This document shows positions 4,438 to 28,044 of a stretch of DNA of 32,000 nt, piece after piece (the first letter of the stretch is position 1; each line of letters starts with the position of its first letter). The notes under the pieces are model-generated. The model saw only the letters and a list, made by a program, of their open reading frames with translations, was not told the origin of the DNA and did no database searches. The position numbers and the translations under genes are program-made. Source of the DNA: Acholeplasma laidlawii PG-8A (lineage in GTDB: Bacteria; Bacillota_I; Bacilli_A; Acholeplasmatales; Acholeplasmataceae). Where the stretch lies: assembly GCF_000018785.1 (NCBI RefSeq), contig NC_010163.1, positions 690,001-722,000 on the forward strand, in the 5' to 3' direction.

Positions 4438-5253
4438 TTAAGAAAAGTTTTTTCTTGAAAATACTAAGAAGACTAACATGACGATTAATCCAAGAACTAG
4501 GTTGAATACAACAGGTGCAAATCCTGGAAGAATAAGTCCAAATATCAAGGCTAACACACTTGGCAGTGTAGAAGCTAAGACGATGAAGTTTAGACCTTCT
4601 AAGTAACTTAAGAAGTTTTGGAATCCGAATCTAAAGAGTTGAATAATACCTGATAATACAATGATATAAATAAGTGTTGCTAAAAACTGAACGGACTGGT
4701 TTCTAATGACTGTAAACAAAATGATTTGATCACTAAATGATTTTTCAATGGATTCACCAAAAAGCTGATAATCTCTAATGCGTTCATCTCCTGTAGAAAT
4801 ATTTAACTGACTTAACATGATAGGTGTTTCAAATCCTTTGTAATTCGGTGAACTAGTTGTATTTTTGTTAATGTCTATATATTGTATATAATCAGCGTAG
4901 AAGATGACTATGTTTTTATTGGTTACAGATTCAATGGATTCATCATAACCAAAATAGTAGATGAAATTTTCATGCGCATAACTTGAACCATTTAATGCAT
5001 TGCTGTCTATACCGCCAGATGTAATGGTAATTGAAGGAAGTGAAGACCAATTAGGTGTAGTCTCTGTAAGGTTATGTTCAATAAAATTAATTTTAGAACC
5101 CTGTTCTTCAAAGGTTAACCAGGTTAGTGGAAAGTTGGCAATAAATGTTAATAGAATAAAGTATATAAAGACTTTGAGTGCATGAACTTTTCTACTGTTT
5201 TCAATTAATTTTGGAAATTGAAAACCCATTTTAAAATATTTAACCAAAAACAT
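4438..5253 (-). CDS. Polytopic membrane protein, DUF1189/YvdJ-like (maltodextrin-cluster associated)
   Basis: 271 aa. The N-terminal pattern (FQFPKLIENSRKVHALKVFIYFILLTFIANFP) and the C-terminal TM helices resemble B. subtilis YvdJ-type proteins encoded in mdx operons. Its start overlaps the RDD gene stop by 1 nt (TAATG). Confidence 0.5.
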   Translation of the reverse strand: MFLVKYFKMGFQFPKLIENSRKVHALKVFIYFILLTFIANFPLTWLTFEEQGSKINFIEHNLTETTPNWSSLPSITITSGGIDSNALNGSSYAHENFIYYFGYDESIESVTNKNIVIFYADYIQYIDINKNTTSSPNYKGFETPIMLSQLNISTGDERIRDYQLFGESIEKSFSDQIILFTVIRNQSVQFLATLIYIIVLSGIIQLFRFGFQNFLSYLEGLNFIVLASTLPSVLALIFGLILPGFAPVVFNLVLGLIVMLVFLVFSRKNFS

Positions 5254-16141: not shown

Positions 16142-18145
16142 ATGGATATAAGTGCGTTAATAGATATGATCGTATCTATATCAAATAACATTTTGATTTT
16201 ACTATCCATAGTCTTTTTATACACGCTTTCTAACTATGAACTTTATAAGCATAAACGCATTAAACAAGTAGTAACCGGTATTGTTGTCGGATTTTTGACT
16301 TTATTTTTAATGACCAATCCAATGGTATTTGAAGAAGGTATTGTTTTTGATACAAGAACCATACTTATACCAATATCCGGTGTATTCTTTGGGCCGATTA
16401 CTACAATCATAGCGAGTATCATTGCCATTGCTTACAGAGTTAATTTAGGTGGAGTTGGTATGATGGTGGGTATATCAACAATCGTCATTAGTGCAGTGAT
16501 TGGTATTTTGTGGCGTTATATATTCAGACGTCATAAATTTAAAAACAAATATTTAGAGTATTATATTTTAGGCTTTACATCGAATGCTCTTGTATTTCTG
16601 CTCATGTTCTTTTTACCAGACAGTTTAAATGTCATTAGACAAGTATTTCCGATTTATCTTATCCTCTTTCCGGTTGTTACGATGTTAACTGGTGTAGTCA
16701 TTAAACAGCAACAGTTTAGAATACAAGCAAGCAACCTTGAAAAAGCTCAAATGCTATTACTTCAAAGTTCTATAGATGCTTCACACAACGTGGAAATATA
16801 TGTAGTGGATAGTGCCTACAATTATCTGACCTTTAATATTTTTCATAAGAATCAAATAAAAGCATATTTTAATGTAGAAATTGATGTAGGGTTTAATGTA
16901 CTATCCTTATTAAAGGATGATAATAGAAGAACACGTATTAAAACATCAATTGATAGTGCTTTAAAGGGTGAAATAATTCATGATGTCATATATACTACAT
17001 TACCTGGTAATAAAATTATAGAGGAACGTTTTACACCACTTCGACGTGGACATGATATTTTAGGGGTAACAGTTTTCATCAGAGATATTACTGAACAACG
17101 TCTACATGAAGACTCTATTATGAGATTAAGTTATTATGATGGCCTTACAGGGTTACCAAATAGAAGATATTTTCAAGAAAAATTAGTAGAAGTTAATGAT
17201 AATCAATACTGTCCTGTATCAATCATTACATGTGATATCAATGGCTTGAAACTCTTTAATGACGCATTGGGACATAAAATGGGAGATTTGGTACTTGTTA
17301 AAGTAGCAGAAATTCTTACCAGACACTTATTACCAAATGGTACAGTTAGCCGTATAGGTGGCGATGAATTTATATTTATTCTACCAAACACGGATTATGA
17401 TACAGCCCTTAAGATGATGGAAAAAGTCGATAATGAATTTGATAAACATCTATTTAATGGTTTAAAACTCTCAGTTTCTTATGGGATTGCGACTAAATTA
17501 GAAGGTGATCATATCGATGATGTTCTAAAACAAAGTGAAGTACAAATGCATAAGAGTAAACTCTTTGAAAAAGCATCTCACCGCAGTGAATTTATTAAAT
17601 CTATCTTAAATACCTTGAGAGAAAAAAATCCTCGAGAAAAGGATCATTCTACTAGGGTAGCTACCATCTGTACAGAAATTGGTAAATTCCTAGGTATGAA
17701 AAAACATGATCTAAATTTACTCGAGGCGATCGCATCACTTCATGATATTGGAAAGATTGCTATTGATGAAGCCATCTTGAATAAACCAGGCAAACTAACA
17801 CCTAAAGAATGGGAAGCAATTAAAAAGCACCCTGAAATTGGTTATAGAATTATTTCTACTGCCCCTGAATATGCAGAAATTGCAGAGGATATATTATCCC
17901 ACCATGAACATTTTAATGGTCAAGGCTATCCAAGAGGGTTAAGCGGTGAAGATATTCCTATTAGAGCTAGAATAGTTTCGATTGCTGATGCTTATGATGC
18001 TATGGTATCTAGGCGAACTTATAAAGAGCCTATGACACACGAACAAGCAATTTTAGAAATTAAACGCTGTTCAGGTACTCAGTTTGATCCTAATTTAGTG
18101 AATATATTTGTTGATTTAATTGAGAATGGCGTATTATACCTATAA
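16142..18145 (+). CDS. Membrane sensor protein: LytS-type 5TM receptor + PAS-like region + GGDEF diguanylate cyclase + HD-GYP phosphodiesterase
   Basis: The start is set at ATG 16142, preceded by an AAAGGAG RBS; the track's TTG at 16109 overlaps a TGtTATAAT extended -10. The 5TMR-LYT signature (FDTRTILIPISGVFFGP) is present. The GGDEF site is intact (RIGGDEF). HD-GYP motifs are LHDIGK and HHEHFNGQGYP. Confidence 0.85.
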   Translation: MDISALIDMIVSISNNILILLSIVFLYTLSNYELYKHKRIKQVVTGIVVGFLTLFLMTNPMVFEEGIVFDTRTILIPISGVFFGPITTIIASIIAIAYRVNLGGVGMMVGISTIVISAVIGILWRYIFRRHKFKNKYLEYYILGFTSNALVFLLMFFLPDSLNVIRQVFPIYLILFPVVTMLTGVVIKQQQFRIQASNLEKAQMLLLQSSIDASHNVEIYVVDSAYNYLTFNIFHKNQIKAYFNVEIDVGFNVLSLLKDDNRRTRIKTSIDSALKGEIIHDVIYTTLPGNKIIEERFTPLRRGHDILGVTVFIRDITEQRLHEDSIMRLSYYDGLTGLPNRRYFQEKLVEVNDNQYCPVSIITCDINGLKLFNDALGHKMGDLVLVKVAEILTRHLLPNGTVSRIGGDEFIFILPNTDYDTALKMMEKVDNEFDKHLFNGLKLSVSYGIATKLEGDHIDDVLKQSEVQMHKSKLFEKASHRSEFIKSILNTLREKNPREKDHSTRVATICTEIGKFLGMKKHDLNLLEAIASLHDIGKIAIDEAILNKPGKLTPKEWEAIKKHPEIGYRIISTAPEYAEIAEDILSHHEHFNGQGYPRGLSGEDIPIRARIVSIADAYDAMVSRRTYKEPMTHEQAILEIKRCSGTQFDPNLVNIFVDLIENGVLYL

Positions 18146-24153: not shown

Positions 24154-25343
24154 GATTTAAAAGAGTATTTTTAATCGTCATGGACTCTTTAGGAGTCGGT
24201 GCATCAGAAGATGCAAATCAATATTTTAATGAAGGGGTAGACGATACAAAAGCAAATACGTTTGGTCATATTGCAGAAAGTATGGATCTTAGAATACCTA
24301 ATTTAGAGAAGCTTGGTGTAGGTAATATCATACCTATAAAAGGTACTAAATCAGTTGAATTATCCTCATCTTATGTAACAAAAATTCGTGAAAAATCACT
24401 AGGAAAAGATACGATGACAGGTCATTGGGAAATCATGGGCTTGTATGTTACAACACCATTTCAAACCTTTACAGACACTGGTTTTCCAAAAGAATTACTA
24501 GATGAATTAGAAGAAAGAACCGGACGTAAAATCATCGGTAATATCGCAGCAAGTGGTACTGAAATATTAAAGGATTTAGGTGAAGAACACATGAGGACTG
24601 GAGACTTAATTGTCTACACATCCGCAGACAGTGTACTTCAAATTGCGATGCATGAAGAGATCATTCCTATTGAAGAACAATACAGAATTTCTGCAATTGC
24701 ACGTGACATTACAATGAGACCAGACTGGAAAGTTGGACGTGTAATTACAAGACCATTCTTAGGTACAAATAAGGACAACTTTAAGCGCACAAGTAATAGA
24801 AAAGATTATGCATTAAAACCAAGTGAAGAGACAACTTTAAACTTCCTAAGTGATGCTAATTATGATGTCATCGCACTAGGTAAAATCAATGATATTTTTG
24901 ATGGTTACGGTATCAATAAATACAGTAAAACAGTATCGAATGATGATGGTATGAAACAGATTACAGAGTGGGCTAAAAAAGATTTTACAGGATTATGTTT
25001 CTTAAATCTAGTAGACTTTGATGCACTCTACGGACACCGCAGAGACCCTCATGGATATGGTAAAGCAATCATGGATATGGATAGTCAATTACCTGAATTA
25101 ATGGCTAATTTAAATGAAGATGATTTACTCATTTTAACAGCTGATCATGGTAATGATCCAACCTATGTTGGTACCGATCATACAAGAGAATTTGTACCAA
25201 TGATAGCTTATAGCAAGTCATTTAAATCAGGTGGTAGCCTACCAATACTTAATACATTTGCCGATTTAGGAAGTACAATTTCTGATAACTTTAAAGTCAA
25301 AAAAACAGAGCATGGTGACAGTTTCTTAAGTAAATTAAAATAA
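24150..25343 (+). CDS. deoB: Phosphopentomutase
   Basis: 397 aa. Blocks [37 protein letters not shown] and LTADHGNDP are present. Confidence 0.9.
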
Positions 25344-25370
25344 ATCAATGTTTACTAAATATAAACAAGG
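25342..25370 (+). repeat. Left boundary inverted repeat of the ORF-free island (contains motif ATGTTTACTAAATAT)
   Basis: AAATCAATGTTTACTAAATATAAACAAGG. The reverse complement of 27145-27173 matches at 26 of 29 positions. It starts at the deoB stop codon. Confidence 0.75.
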
Positions 25371-25397
25371 TGTAGAAATACTGCACCTTTTTATTTT
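25367..25397 (+). terminator. Rho-independent terminator of deoB
   Basis: Stem AAGGTGTAG / CTGCACCTT (one G-U pair) with loop AAATA, followed by TTTTATTTT. Confidence 0.7.
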
Positions 25398-25773
25398 GCA
25401 ATAATATGACGAATAAAGTCTGAATGATGTATATAAATATTTTGATAAAATACACTGTGAAACTAGATTTAATATGCTCAACTAAAACACCTAAACAGGA
25501 AAAAGTATACACAAAATTTAACCTTGTTTAAAGGTGGTAAAATCAGCCTAAAAACAAACATACATGAAGCATTGTTGATGATAAAAACGAACGAACAATG
25601 GACTCAATAAGGCCGATTAAAATAGAGAAAATGATGTAAAACGTGTCTAAACTAATAGCAGTTTGAGATGCATGATTATACGTAAAAGTAAAACTCGATT
25701 GCTTAAAATGCGCCTATAAAATTAAACGAAAACTAAATGTTATGAAAAAACAAATTTTAAAATTTCAAAAAAC

Positions 25774-25818
25774 CTATGTTTACTATTTAATGACTCAGTA
25801 TATATTTAGTAAACATAG
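25774..25818. repeat. Inverted pair of the ATGTTTACTA motif (12-bp perfect arms, 21-nt spacer)
   Basis: CTATGTTTACTA ... TAGTAAACATAG. The right arm's reverse complement, ATGTTTACTAAATAT (25802-25816), is identical over 15 nt to 25348-25362. Confidence 0.7.
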
Positions 25819-26136
25819 AATATTTCATGAGGAAACATAAAAAAGAGAAATTTCAGATATGTAGAAGTATTTCAGTAATTTAGTAATTTCCAAAGTAAAG
25901 TTTTAAGTGATCATTTTTATCGACGTAACATGATAGTTATAATTGTTAAAAAGCAAATGCGAAAAAATATAAGCCTTGATATTTCATACTAAGATGATCA
26001 GTTGAAGAGATTTTTAAAAGTATGATTCGATAAATTTATTAGCAGTTCACTATTTAAGTGAGATGAAATTAAACCAATCTTAAGAGTATAATTAATAGCC
26101 TTTATACAATCACACAATGATAATTATAAAACGTAA

Positions 26137-26155
26137 GTTTACCAAATATAAACAA
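26137..26155 (+). repeat. Internal copy of the boundary motif
   Basis: GTTTACCAAATATAAACAA matches 25350-25368 at 18 of 19 positions. It is flanked by the inverted hexamers ACGTAA / TTACGT. Confidence 0.6.
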
Positions 26156-26560
26156 TGTTTAGCGATGTAGTTACGTCGTAAGTGTAAATATTCTGTGTTA
26201 CACATTGATTGGTTGATTGGTAGTTGTAGCTGAAGACCCTTTAACAATGAGTGCATAAAGATGGTAAATGGGTATTGAATTGATAGCGATTGAGATGGAT
26301 ATACATCAGTTAATTAAGTACTCAAACGCTCAAAAATAACCAAACGTTTTTAGTTATTAGTATTGTTATTTACATCAAAATTGAAAGGTTTTGAGTCTCT
26401 GAAGCACCACTAGAGAGATTCGTTCAATATCATCATCTATAACGACGATTTTTAATAGATAAGACGTAACCCGGTTACGGAAGCACTAAATACAAGCAAT
26501 TAATAATTACAACATATCCACACTAACCTTGTTGTCCGCACAGTAAGGCTCACATTAAGT

Positions 26561-26588
26561 GGTTAACATAATATACATTATAGGCACT
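26561..26588 (-). other. dif: dif site (XerC/XerD chromosome dimer resolution site)
   Basis: The minus strand reads AGTGCCTATAA-TGTATA-TTATGTTAACC. 23 of 28 positions equal E. coli dif, including a 19-nt uninterrupted block ATAATGTATATTATGTTAA. It lies in an ORF-free interval between convergent genes, 2.4 kb from xerD. Confidence 0.8.
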
Positions 26589-26945
26589 AATTAATAAATA
26601 AAATAGTGTGGTTCTATCTTTTAAATGGGTATATTAATATATAAATGAGTATGATTAAATCTATAATATACCTATTAATTTACATATAAATATAATCATA
26701 ATATATATATGAGTATAAATAACGTTTTGAAAGTAAGTTTGATAGCATTTCATGTTACTTACGTTGACTAATTATATGTCTCACTCGCTATTAGGCTTAA
26801 AACACGTGATATCATGTTTTTACATGTATCAGATGCTGACGGACTACTACTACTCTTATGATGCTATGTGTGTCATTTATTATCAACTTTGAGAAGTGGT
26901 TAAATCTCATCCATCGATCAAGAGACGGTTGTCCACATCAGACGA

Positions 26946-26988
26946 AAGTAAAGGAGATGAGAAATATCTCTTCCCATCTCCTTTACTT
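26946..26988. other. Strong isolated hairpin (14-bp perfect stem)
   Basis: AAGTAAAGGAGATG / CATCTCCTTTACTT with a 15-nt loop, followed on + by TTAATTT. A second hairpin (CCAGGAT / ATCCTGG plus ACG/CGT) lies at 26998-27042. Confidence 0.6.
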
Positions 26989-27097
26989 AATTTGAATACG
27001 TAACCAGGATCACTTCTTATGCTAAACATATATCCTGGGCGTTTAACTTAAATAAACATTAGTCTATATTTTAAGTTTAATAAAAGTATACTGAATA

Positions 27098-27142
27098 ATT
27101 ATTTACTAAACATTAAGAATTTTGTTAAGTTTAGTAAATAAT
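27098..27142. repeat. Inverted pair of the TTTACTAAAC motif (14-bp perfect arms, 17-nt spacer)
   Basis: ATTATTTACTAAAC ... GTTTAGTAAATAAT. Confidence 0.7.
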
Positions 27143-27144
27143 GT

Positions 27145-27173
27145 CCTAGTTTATAATTGGTAAACATTGATTT
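27145..27173 (-). repeat. Right boundary inverted repeat of the ORF-free island
   Basis: The reverse complement AAATCAATGTTTACCAATTATAAACTAGG matches 25342-25370 at 26 of 29 positions. The 12-bp palindrome TTTACTAGTAAA follows immediately (27174-27185). Confidence 0.75.
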
Positions 27174-27182
27174 TTTACTAGT

Positions 27183-27210
27183 AAATAAAAAAAGTGCTTC
27201 TCAGCACTTT
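27183..27210 (-). terminator. Terminator of the YneF-like gene (potentially bidirectional)
   Basis: 8-bp stem AAAGTGCT / AGCACTTT with loop TCTC. T-runs flank it on both strands. Confidence 0.7.
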
Positions 27211-27214
27211 ATTT

Positions 27215-27433
27215 TTACTTAGTATTTTGTTTCATAGATGCTAGAACTTGTCTAACTTGTTTTTCAGAAGGAGTTCTTCCCATTTGTCTAAACATCTCTC
27301 TAATCGATCTTTCATCCATTGGTGGATTCTTTTCTAAATACTTTTTGAACCAAGCTCTGGCGATAAAAAATCCTGCAACAGCACCAATTAGTAATGCACC
27401 AACTGCGATTGCTATAACCCAATACCATTCCAT
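27215..27433 (-). CDS. UPF0154 (YneF-like) small membrane protein
   Basis: The start is set at MEWYWV because an AAAGGAG RBS lies 9 nt upstream; the track's earlier ATG has no RBS. It has one TM helix followed by KKYLEKNPPMDERSIREMFRQMGRTPSEKQV, typical of the family. Confidence 0.75.
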   Translation of the reverse strand: MEWYWVIAIAVGALLIGAVAGFFIARAWFKKYLEKNPPMDERSIREMFRQMGRTPSEKQVRQVLASMKQNTK

Positions 27434-27495
27434 TAGCGACAACTCCTTTCGTAAGTACATATTCATTTTACTTTATTTCATTATAAATTACAATG

Positions 27496-28044
27496 TTAAT
27501 GTTTACTTAATATTAATATCTTTTTACTGCCGTATACTTTTTCTTTTAAGATAGTGTATGCTTTGATTTGTTCTAAATCTAGAGTTCTACTTTTATCCAT
27601 TTCTAACACGAGTAATGCATCATCATTTAAGTAAGGTATTAGTTGGTTAGAAATGGATTCATAGATGTCTAATTTATAGGGTGGATCTAAGAAAACAATA
27701 TCTAATTTATCTTTTAATTCTGACAGTTTTTTTAAGGCTATATTATAATCATGTTTCCATAGTATGACTCTATCTATTACGCCTAGATTTGCTATATTTT
27801 CATTCAAGGTGTTAATAGCAATTTGTTTAACATCATTAAACACTACATACTTAGCACCTCTAGAAATTGATTCTAATCCATAACTACCTGATCCAGCAAA
27901 TAAGTCTAATATGACAGCGTCTTTAATTGATTCACCGAGACTATTAAAGACTGCGCCCCTTACTTTGTCAGATGTCTCTCTGGTATCATTTGAGGGGACC
28001 ATTTTTAATAATCTACTTTTAAATTCTCCAGAGATAATACGCAT
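27496..28044 (-). CDS. rsmD: 16S rRNA (guanine966-N2)-methyltransferase RsmD
   Basis: 182 aa. Blocks MRIISGEFK, DLFAGSGSYGLESISRGA and FLDPPY are present. Confidence 0.85.
   Translation of the reverse strand: MRIISGEFKSRLLKMVPSNDTRETSDKVRGAVFNSLGESIKDAVILDLFAGSGSYGLESISRGAKYVVFNDVKQIAINTLNENIANLGVIDRVILWKHDYNIALKKLSELKDKLDIVFLDPPYKLDIYESISNQLIPYLNDDALLVLEMDKSRTLDLEQIKAYTILKEKVYGSKKILILSKH

Follow-up and report, generated by a model that had tools for sequence, protein, structure and literature searches.

Polar palindromic sites bracket dif in a gene-free island of Acholeplasma laidlawii and are candidates for a new terminus barrier system

The window analyzed here is a 32,000-nucleotide stretch of the Acholeplasma laidlawii PG-8A chromosome (NC_010163.1, positions 690,001 to 722,000; G+C content of 32-33%). 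It contains an island free of open reading frames (ORFs) around the Xer recombination site dif, and this island carries the family of short palindromic sites that is the subject of this work. The genes lepA, hemW, xerD and deoB, all on the + strand, precede the island, which is followed by yneF/UPF0154, rsmD and pdp, all on the - strand. The deoB protein was found as an exact match in LS483439.1 and in at least seven further assemblies, and the locus lies at about 47-48% of the 1,497,557-bp chromosome LS483439.1. In a 48-kb reconstruction (L209, the window and L210 merged), the cumulative G-C maximum fell 275 bp from dif, where the skew switches sign; in ten relatives, this maximum was at most 1.3 kb from dif. 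The xerD gene lies 1.2 kb upstream, and every relative retains the order xerD-deoB-dif.

The initial annotation of this stretch had found no ORF of 60 aa or more between 25344 and 27214, and this was confirmed, the longest ORF touching the interval having 55 aa. Gene callers placed zero genes in the island across eight strain assemblies. Reassigning any single stop codon opened no gene in the interval. All three stop codons are frequent in the six frames, in the island as in the gaps of the relatives, and a hidden gene or an altered genetic code was rejected on these grounds. Comparison of the relatives' gaps by tblastx gave matches in all frames with no conserved peptide, indicating that conservation operates at the DNA level. 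The published 5'-ERS table of A. laidlawii PG-8A, in which the transcription start sites (TSSs) of ACL_0676 to ACL_0685 fit the gene starts of the window with one constant offset, has zero TSS between the xerD and yneF promoters, in a listing that may cover gene-assigned starts only (PMC5138195). Searching the island against Rfam 15 gave no match at gathering score and none credible at E-value thresholds. RNAalifold predicted no pairs and gave no consensus structure for the 200 conserved nt to the right of dif.

The dif site (Table 1) has six mismatches to what we take to be the B. subtilis dif. Its 23-nt core is identical in seven relatives (L001, L211 to L214 and L216 among them). There is one dif-like site per locus, with no second one at up to four mismatches to the core, and dif has the same orientation in 15 of 15 loci, always in a gene-poor gap downstream of xerD-deoB.

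Table 1. Features mapped in the dif region, in window coordinates.
Feature	Position	Strand	Basis and remarks
ORF-free dif island, with deoB (+) and yneF/UPF0154 (-) convergent around it	25344..27214	.	ORF, gene-call and TSS data
Single site S1, core 25349-25367 TGTTTACTAAATATAAACA	25341..25371	+	Position weight matrix, 33.9 bits
Intrinsic terminator of deoB, abutting S1	25367..25389	+	Terminator scan; conserved in four species
Conserved block CTCGATTGCT...CGCCTAT	25693..25721	.	Four-species island alignment
Doublet D1, head to head, symmetric, core 25777-25815	25769..25823	.	Position weight matrix, 14.0 bits (+) and 23.0 bits (-); repeat search
Single site S3, core 26136-26154, 428 bp left of dif	26128..26158	+	Position weight matrix, 36.6 bits
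DnaA-box-like ATATCCACA (26514-26522) and CCGCAC (26536-26541)	26514..26541	+	XerD-arm side of dif
dif AGTGCCTATAATGTATATTATGTTAACC; XerC arm AGTGCCTATAA, centre TGTATA, XerD arm TTATGTTAACC	26561..26588	-	
Promoter-like ATGAGTATRA, two copies (26635-26658 and 26699-26722)	26635..26722	+	Repeat search; conserved in 10 loci
Right-hand array of three 54-bp-phased units	27020..27180	-	Repeat search, pentamer spacing
Right-array units: 19-bp site 27040-27058; doublet-type 27074-27112 and 27128-27166			
Strong single site within the right-hand array	27144..27174	-	Position weight matrix, 32.8 bits
Palindrome TTTACTAGTAAA, two abutting half-sites	27174..27185	.	
Intrinsic terminator of yneF	27191..27210	-	Terminator scan

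The 15-mer highlighted in the initial annotation proved to be the outer arm of a larger site, that is, one arm of TGTTTA-N7-TAAACA plus flanks. The complete site covers ~31 bp and consists of an A-rich outer flank, a 19-bp imperfect palindrome, (T/A)GTTTA-N7-TAAAC(A/T), and a short inner flank. Within it, a well conserved outer arm, nGTATGTTTAS, is separated by a 5-7-nt AT spacer from a weaker inner arm, TAAACw. Since the outer arm and its flank are better conserved than the inner arm, the near-palindrome gains an orientation. The sites occur in two forms, either as singles or as head-to-head doublets of two 19-bp sites with centres 20 bp apart. A 31-nt position weight matrix (PWM) was built from 12 site copies and used for scoring.

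These sites are concentrated in the island well beyond chance. Allowing up to two mismatches, ATGTTTACYAAATAT matched seven times in the 32 kb, against 0.95 expected and 0 of 100 shuffles reaching seven, and six of the seven matches fell within 25348-27513. The pentamers GTTTA/TAAAC reach 10.7 per kb in the island; outside it, the density is 3.9 per kb, and shuffles give 4.7 +/- 1.5 per kb. The inverted repeats reported at the island ends were reproduced: 26 of 29 positions agree between 25342-25370 and 27145-27173 read as the reverse complement, and shuffled islands reached 21/29 at most. All the copies inventoried at the outset were found, including the palindrome at 27174-27185 and the inverted pairs at 25774-25818 and 27098-27142, which correspond to head-to-head doublets. 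The inventory was nonetheless incomplete, as it lacked a further copy at 27040-27058 and the organization of the right side as a three-unit array. In this array, TAAAC recurs at 27053, 27107 and 27161, that is, with 54-bp phasing, just beyond the yneF terminator. Tandem Repeats Finder did not report the array, because its copies are only ~65-75% alike, and its recognition rests on the repeat search and the pentamer spacing. Relative to dif, the elements stand at -1215, -780, -428, 0 and +520 to +584, roughly 400 bp apart. S1 falls between the stop codon of deoB and the terminator of this gene, and its outer arm points away from dif.

To judge conservation, we have compared xerD-deoB neighbourhoods from species-representative genomes and metagenomes (70-74% DeoB identity) and from closer relatives at 72-85% identity, namely L211, L212 (A. 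granularum), L213 (A. hippikon), L214 (A. equirhinis), L215 (Alteracholeplasma palmae) and L216; the named species are the nearest named relatives. Fifteen Acholeplasmataceae loci were long enough to judge. In 15/15, sites of at least 16 bits clustered within ~1.6 kb of dif, and at least one strong site, orthologous to the right-hand ones of the window, lay 440-940 bp right of dif, on the XerC-arm side. The DNA in which the sites persist as footprints is otherwise unalignable between these genomes. The right-hand site is near-invariant where deoB is only 70-74% identical and where the 860-940 bp to dif are unalignable. It stays with dif while its right-hand neighbours vary (hydrolases in L004, an ABC transporter in L088).

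Four species (A. laidlawii, L216, L211 and A. granularum) have a common layout of four elements. Abutting the deoB terminator, at about -1200, is a single site; a doublet follows at about -700 to -800 and another single at about -400; right of dif, either a doublet or a single is found at about +480 to +590. Orthologues of D1 are doublets at the matching position in L216, L211 and L212, and those of S3 lie at -390 to -415 in the same three; S1 and its terminator are conserved in L216, L211, L212, L088 and L001. The four islands are only ~53% identical overall. The initial annotation had asked which blocks would survive such an alignment, and these were S1 with its terminator, D1, S3, the dif block, the right-hand units and 25693-25721. 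This pattern is a phylogenetic footprint, with selection acting on the sites as the intervening DNA drifts. Comparison within the species was uninformative, the strains being nearly identical.

The left side is more variable. The ansA gene lies between deoB and dif in L001, L004, L213, L214 and L215 (L001 has in addition a gene for a 331-aa membrane protein), and its position is occupied by 1.1-1.2 kb of non-coding DNA with three site units in the four species just mentioned. Left-hand sites are fewer in L001 and A. palmae, absent in A. hippikon and weak in A. equirhinis, all of them ansA-bearing. The A. laidlawii island thus has two parts, an ancestral non-coding zone right of dif and ~1.2 kb left of it in the ansA position. 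No decayed ansA or L001 331-aa gene was found in the island by tblastn, and this origin was rejected. Site-like copies of 14-19 bits occur on the + strand inside the asparaginase coding sequence of L004 (13750-13780), L083 (12221-12251), L084 (6077-6107) and L089 (12264-12294), and one of 12.5 bits is present in L001 (2741-2771); these intragenic copies encode ..I(Y/K)TKL... In L004, L083, L084 and L089, they lie ~850-870 bp left of dif, the right-hand site being at ~880-915 bp. They could be functional sites embedded in a gene, or coincidence.

Outside the dif zone, the sites are rare. In ~2.3 Mb of unrelated Firmicute loci, one PWM match of at least 14 bits was found (14.5 bits) and none of at least 16 bits. 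No other full site is present in the 48 kb of A. laidlawii chromosome around dif, and the 15-21-kb flanks of the relatives hold none beyond the island. A dispersed repeat resembling a miniature inverted-repeat transposable element (MITE) or a repetitive extragenic palindrome (REP), as considered initially, is disfavoured by the lack of copies outside the island in these stretches. The mapping of the motif proposed along with it was realized for the 48 kb and the 15 loci, and both the clustering and the orientation switch were seen there. A near-identical word, GTCAGTTTACTAAATATAAACTTAAT, is present once per contig in the IMG/VR contigs L168, L171, L174, L179, L180, L182, L184, L193, L194 and L196; this viral family is probably unrelated to the terminus sites.

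The orientation of the sites mirrors about dif. Among the single sites of the 15 loci, those left of dif are 14 on the + strand and one on the - strand, and those right of dif are 18 on the - strand and two on the + strand, so that 32/35 have the outer arm pointing away from dif. Lineage-specific extra copies (three on the right in L088, others in L214 and L215) obey the same rule. Because the A-rich run is found on the outer flank only, strand composition alone fails to explain the orientation. The opposed copies flanking dif that were noticed in the window are a non-chance arrangement that extends to 15 genomes. The copies thought to break this polarity are halves of symmetric doublets. A further one, the 14/15 copy at 27499-27513, is indeed present and overlaps the rsmD stop codon; it scores below 9 bits on the site matrix.

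Terminal inverted repeats with 26/29 identity, together with iteron-like repeats, AT-rich DNA, a DnaA-box-like word and a left 1.2 kb standing where relatives have ansA, might also be what is left of a mobile or integrated element, such as an integrative mobile element exploiting Xer recombination (IMEX) at dif, a non-autonomous terminal inverted repeat (TIR) element, or a plasmid origin with iterons and a DnaA box; dif regions are integration hot spots. This was suggested at the outset, but it fits poorly with what was found. One dif per locus means that a two-att IMEX is not present, and the constant dif orientation in the 15 loci gives no sign of an inversion. The island had no blastn match among plasmids and phages, and two pattern scans of viral contigs returned single-copy matches only, which look like chance. 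No coding remnants were detectable, and the island is not repeated within 48 kb. A layout kept across species and genera at ~53% intervening identity speaks for selection on the sites and not for decay. Hence, the decayed IMEX and the TIR element have lost their appeal along with the MITE/REP-like repeat, and we regard a relic as very unlikely. The organization of the sites is compatible with an iteron- or centromere-like site array.

The association of sites with terminators raises the question of whether the palindromes work as RNA, as 3'-untranslated region (UTR) hairpins or weak terminators. In three lineages, S1 is part of the deoB 3' UTR, immediately ahead of the terminator, and one L088 site forms the stem of a bidirectional-terminator-like structure, a perfect 51-bp palindrome (4445-4495, CTATACAAAAAAACTCTAAGTTTAATTATTGTAAACTTAGAGTTTTTTTGTATAG) with the site core at its centre and A/T runs. 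The stems, however, amount to 5-6 A-U pairs with no consensus structure in the alignment, and the internal copies D1 and S3 are in a stretch where no TSS is mapped. To the right, the yneF terminator precedes the site, which should therefore not be transcribed. Such a role is the least probable of those considered and would surprise us.

The sites are not the only conserved elements around dif. On the XerD-arm side, the DnaA-box-like word (~45 bp from the arm) and CCGCAC (~25 bp) are near-invariant across 10 loci and in the four-species alignment; in L083 and L084, the former reads TTATCCACA. On the XerC-arm side, ATGAGTATRAT resembles an extended -10 box, lies ~80-140 bp from dif and is duplicated in this genome; in the relatives, it is followed by a conserved GAGAGT..TTTT.AGCG stretch. 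The ATGAGTATRA element gave no consensus RNA fold and had no TSS in the published table. Farther out, at about +261 to +288, CTTCTTC(TTC), with GAAGAAG pointing toward dif, is conserved, near +285, in L003, L082, L083, L084, L086 and L089, and is degenerate in the window at about 26868-26885. Over 177 kb of clade loci, no 7-mers are more strongly skewed toward dif than AGAAGAA (121:10) and GAAGAAG (76:15), which makes them candidates for FtsK-orienting polar sequences of the Lactococcus type, with a skew that is confounded by gene orientation. On the left, the block at 25693-25721, comparatively GC-rich and in the middle of an otherwise unalignable left half, is kept in the four species; it matches the XerC arm at 9/11, which is a chance frequency.

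Two further observations were made in the right half of the island. An 18-bp near-perfect hairpin (94% complementary, 26946-26988) holds AAAGGAGATG together with a mini-ORF of 12 codons; this hairpin explains the weak Rfam matches and is not conserved in L001. The Logan assembly SRR068587 (L206) is identical to the window over deoB and the 1.2 kb left of dif, and differs by 22 single nucleotide polymorphisms (SNPs) in the 600 bp right of dif (window 26635-27156), the first at 47 bp past dif. Either two lineages have recombined with a junction at dif, as this pattern suggests, or the assembly is chimeric. One of the SNPs, 27040 C>T, improves the palindrome at 27040-27058.

Such a cluster of elements next to dif prompts comparison with cer/psi, where accessory sites act with ArgR, PepA and ArcA. 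The sites may be architectural elements of Xer recombination, whose looping or wrapping would set its directionality or timing. This would be in keeping with the fact that, in all loci, the XerC-arm side of dif carries sites as well as further conserved blocks between +15 and +300, with the ~400-bp spacing of elements kept in four species and with the 54-bp phasing, which suggests wrapping. Known Xer accessory sequences, however, lie within about 200 bp of the core site, and the sites described here are 430-1600 bp away. Moreover, a polarity mirrored about dif is not required for such a role. A. laidlawii also expresses FtsK (PMC3139596), so that the canonical FtsK-XerCD pathway is at hand and there is less need for cer-like accessory sites. 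We consider this role unlikely.

XerD itself may be the protein that binds, the sites serving as "half-dif" elements similar to XDS, which would unload or stall complexes of SMC (structural maintenance of chromosomes) proteins or pre-concentrate the recombinase. There is a precedent in B. subtilis, where XerD binds dif-like XDS in the terminus without XerC (PMC11840125, PMC11894783), and the conserved neighbourhood of xerD, deoB and dif is suggestive as well. In A. granularum, the outer arm plus flank (TTATGTTTACC) matches the XerD arm (TTATGTTAACC) at 10/11. The resemblance, however, did not hold up as a general property of the sites. Over the full 28 nt of dif, the similarity was not significant; the match to the XerD half was 11-12/17, with p between 0.01 and 0.15 against an unmatched null; and the best-register arm match averaged 6.8/11 (p = 0.07 against shuffled arms), with single copies at 9-10/11. 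Xer-arm-like words of 9/11 are common throughout the window with no enrichment in the island, and whether the local dif arm has GTTAAC or GTAAAC is not mirrored in the sites. Furthermore, the palindrome points to a symmetric dimer and not to a Xer monomer. On the sequences compared, binding by XerD is unsupported, and we would give this explanation about the same small chance as an accessory role in recombination. The sites share with XDS the terminus region, the link to XerD/dif, a presumed recombination-independent function and an outer arm partly resembling the XerD arm; they differ in being palindromic, not significantly dif-like (XDS are dif-like by description) and all within ~1.6 kb of dif.

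A metabolic transcription factor might also bind the sites. In Spiroplasma melliferum, the operator predicted for SPM_004435 is AGTTTAGTATAACTAAACA, in the context AAAAACAAAAAGTTTAGTATAACTAAACAAG, and is conserved in four Spiroplasma species (PMC5138195). It is palindromic and 16/19 identical to the clade sites, with the same A-rich 5' flank and AAG 3' flank, and this likeness supports a recogniser of the classical dimeric helix-turn-helix type. Our sites could thus be operators of the AGTTTAGTATAACTAAACA-type family that regulate deoB/pdp, or decoys, all the more as genes for nucleoside catabolism lie on both sides in A. laidlawii. The Spiroplasma operator, however, is a conservation-based prediction found in single copy in the 5' leader of an operon for a transcription factor and a putrescine transporter, and not at dif (PMC5138195). 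In A. laidlawii, none of the 34 predicted transcription-factor motifs fits the sites (PMC5138195), which are at 3' ends of convergent genes and not at promoters, in an island with no mapped TSS. Besides, the right-hand neighbours change between relatives while the site keeps to dif, and the dif-tied polarity would be left unexplained. Operators therefore seem to us a slightly poorer prospect than either XerD sites or accessory elements.

Based on these results, any function proposed would have to need the specific ~31 bp, follow dif rather than the neighbouring genes, be directional relative to dif, tolerate or require several hundred bp of silent, free-evolving spacer, and use phased multi-site arrays. 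Terminus-directed processes on this scale are only replication, SMC extrusion from the origin, FtsK translocation and convergent transcription of the flanking operons. As these are the only ones directional on this scale, we favour a reading in which a polar protein-DNA roadblock array brackets dif. We give this reading a tentative probability of roughly 45%, split about equally between replication forks and SMC complexes as the target. The fork trap suggested in the initial annotation would accordingly be one of two about equally likely versions.

What follows on the bound protein, the number of dimers, the barrier and the machine that it targets is our inference. A sequence-specific dimeric DNA-binding protein encoded outside the window would occupy the sites, with one dimer on a single site and two dimers on a head-to-head doublet, 20 bp apart on one helix face. 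Assembled in this way to the left and right of dif, the nucleoprotein array would form a direction-dependent roadblock for machines converging on the terminus. If the machine is the replisome, the array would be a compact fork trap, and replication would finish at dif. If it is a loop-extruding SMC complex, stalling or unloading would take place before dif, as in B. subtilis XerD/XDS and at the Thermococcus boundary. An Smc-like protein is expressed in A. laidlawii, alongside FtsK (PMC3139596).

Regarding fork traps, Tus homologues occur only in Enterobacterales, Pseudoalteromonas and Aeromonadales, RTP occurs in no more than a few Bacillus species, and the two proteins are unrelated (PMC10331603). 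As in any fork trap, opposed polar groups flank the terminus in the 15 loci. Like Tus-Ter, the sites are polar and ~23-31 bp long, and they form two groups that oppose each other across dif and the skew switch. The clade sequence (A/T)GTATGTTTAS-TAAAT shares AAGTATGTT and ACTAAA with E. coli TerB (read from NC_000913.3, upstream of tus, as AATAAGTATGTTGTAACTAAAGT), provided that a 2-nt gap is allowed. Unlike Ter, however, they are palindromic, and the array occupies 2 kb instead of hundreds of kb. The Ter core AGNATGTTGTAACTAA, including its G-C(6) pair, does not fit the sites, GTTGTAAC is absent from them, and no tus-like gene is found among the window proteins.

With RTP-Ter, the shared traits are a Firmicutes-related host lineage, imperfect inverted repeats, binding by a dimer in the case of RTP, innermost opposed sites that are close, and doublets in which weak and strong adjacent sites recall Ter A and B. 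The resemblance to the RTP Ter core brought forward in the initial annotation is not supported. The B. subtilis B-site core is presumably CTATGTACYAAAT, a consensus that was not verifiable in the literature searched, and the window core CTATGTTTACTAAAT has two extra T residues, so that a 2-nt insertion is needed. The architecture is not that of Ter either, with a 19-bp palindrome alone or in a 39-bp symmetric doublet, against a 30-bp overlapping A+B site. No member of the RTP family (Pfam PF02334) was detected among the proteins of the 32-kb window or in the flanks of L004 and L001. By sequence, the sites would thus appear to belong to neither Tus-Ter nor RTP-Ter.

The sites may instead represent a third, independently evolved fork trap in Acholeplasmataceae, in which polar GTATGTTTAS-N5-TAAAC sites, bound by a terminator protein, would bracket dif within 2 kb and make forks always fuse there. 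This more specific proposal is rather doubtful, though less so than any of the alternatives discussed above. The core would then be an intermediate one, which we hold to be just as doubtful, with TATGT-TT-ACTAAA at these sites standing between TATGT-ACTAAA of Bacillus and TATGT-TGTA-ACTAAA of E. coli. Since Tus and RTP are unrelated proteins, this TATGT-(0, 2 or 4 nt)-ACTAAA series is no evidence of homology, and we retain it as a curiosity and a lead.

Two systems offer models for the SMC version of the roadblock besides XerD/XDS. In Thermococcus kodakarensis, the 1.9-kb intergenic region surrounding dif between convergent genes is an SMC boundary, independent of Xer/dif (PMC11840125). The likeness lies in a dif within ~1.9 kb of intergenic DNA between convergent genes, where it is the surrounding sequence that carries the function. 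The differences are that Thermococcus is an archaeon in which a TrmBL2 filament forms the roadblock through DNA structural properties with Smc-ScpAB, that no discrete polar palindromes are reported there and that there is no homology (PMC11840125). MatP-matS resembles the system proposed here in being palindromic, terminus-specific, dimer-bound and directed at the exclusion or unloading of an SMC complex, and departs from it in its spread over ~800 kb, its lack of polarity and its sequence. We take matS to be GTGACRNYGTCAC, and know of no MatP in Firmicutes or Mollicutes.

Several points weigh against the polar roadblock. The window encodes no DNA-binding protein other than XerD, in line with the lack of a candidate recorded initially, and neither do the surroundings of the relatives' sites. 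The doublets are symmetric and would not be polar alone. With left-hand sites absent in A. hippikon and weak in A. equirhinis, a two-sided barrier is not universal. As many of the counted sites are orthologous, the independent events are far below 35 and the orientation count is overstated. The specificity scan covered 48 kb of the host genome, with copies possible elsewhere. A lone 21-bit half-site-like match (AAAATGAAAGTTTACTATTTCTAATTAATGA, outer arm and flank only) lies on the + strand in an alpha-amylase gene 30 kb left of dif (~684,482 of LS483439.1, 4.1 kb before the window start; L209, ~16,779-16,809). Polar Ter sites are narrowly distributed and fork traps are rare in bacteria (PMC10331603). 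In the alignment with TerB, the non-permissive end faces away from dif, which is wrong for a trap. The alignment with the presumed, unverified RTP B-site consensus turns the blocking face toward dif, so that polarity by analogy is contradictory.

We found no earlier description of these sites in the literature searched. Two fork traps (Tus and RTP) and two terminus SMC-exclusion systems (MatP/matS and XerD/XDS) are known in bacteria, and to our knowledge none of them has been described for Mollicutes-like organisms. The dif-flanking site family is, from its sequence, a candidate for a new terminus barrier system. Being short, polar and family-wide, and present in a cultivable host with a small genome, it offers a handle on replication termination, SMC traffic and chromosome dimer resolution. 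With either target machine, a polar roadblock, if true, would be a new terminus-organising system; if the machine is the replisome, it would be the third convergent invention of a fork trap.

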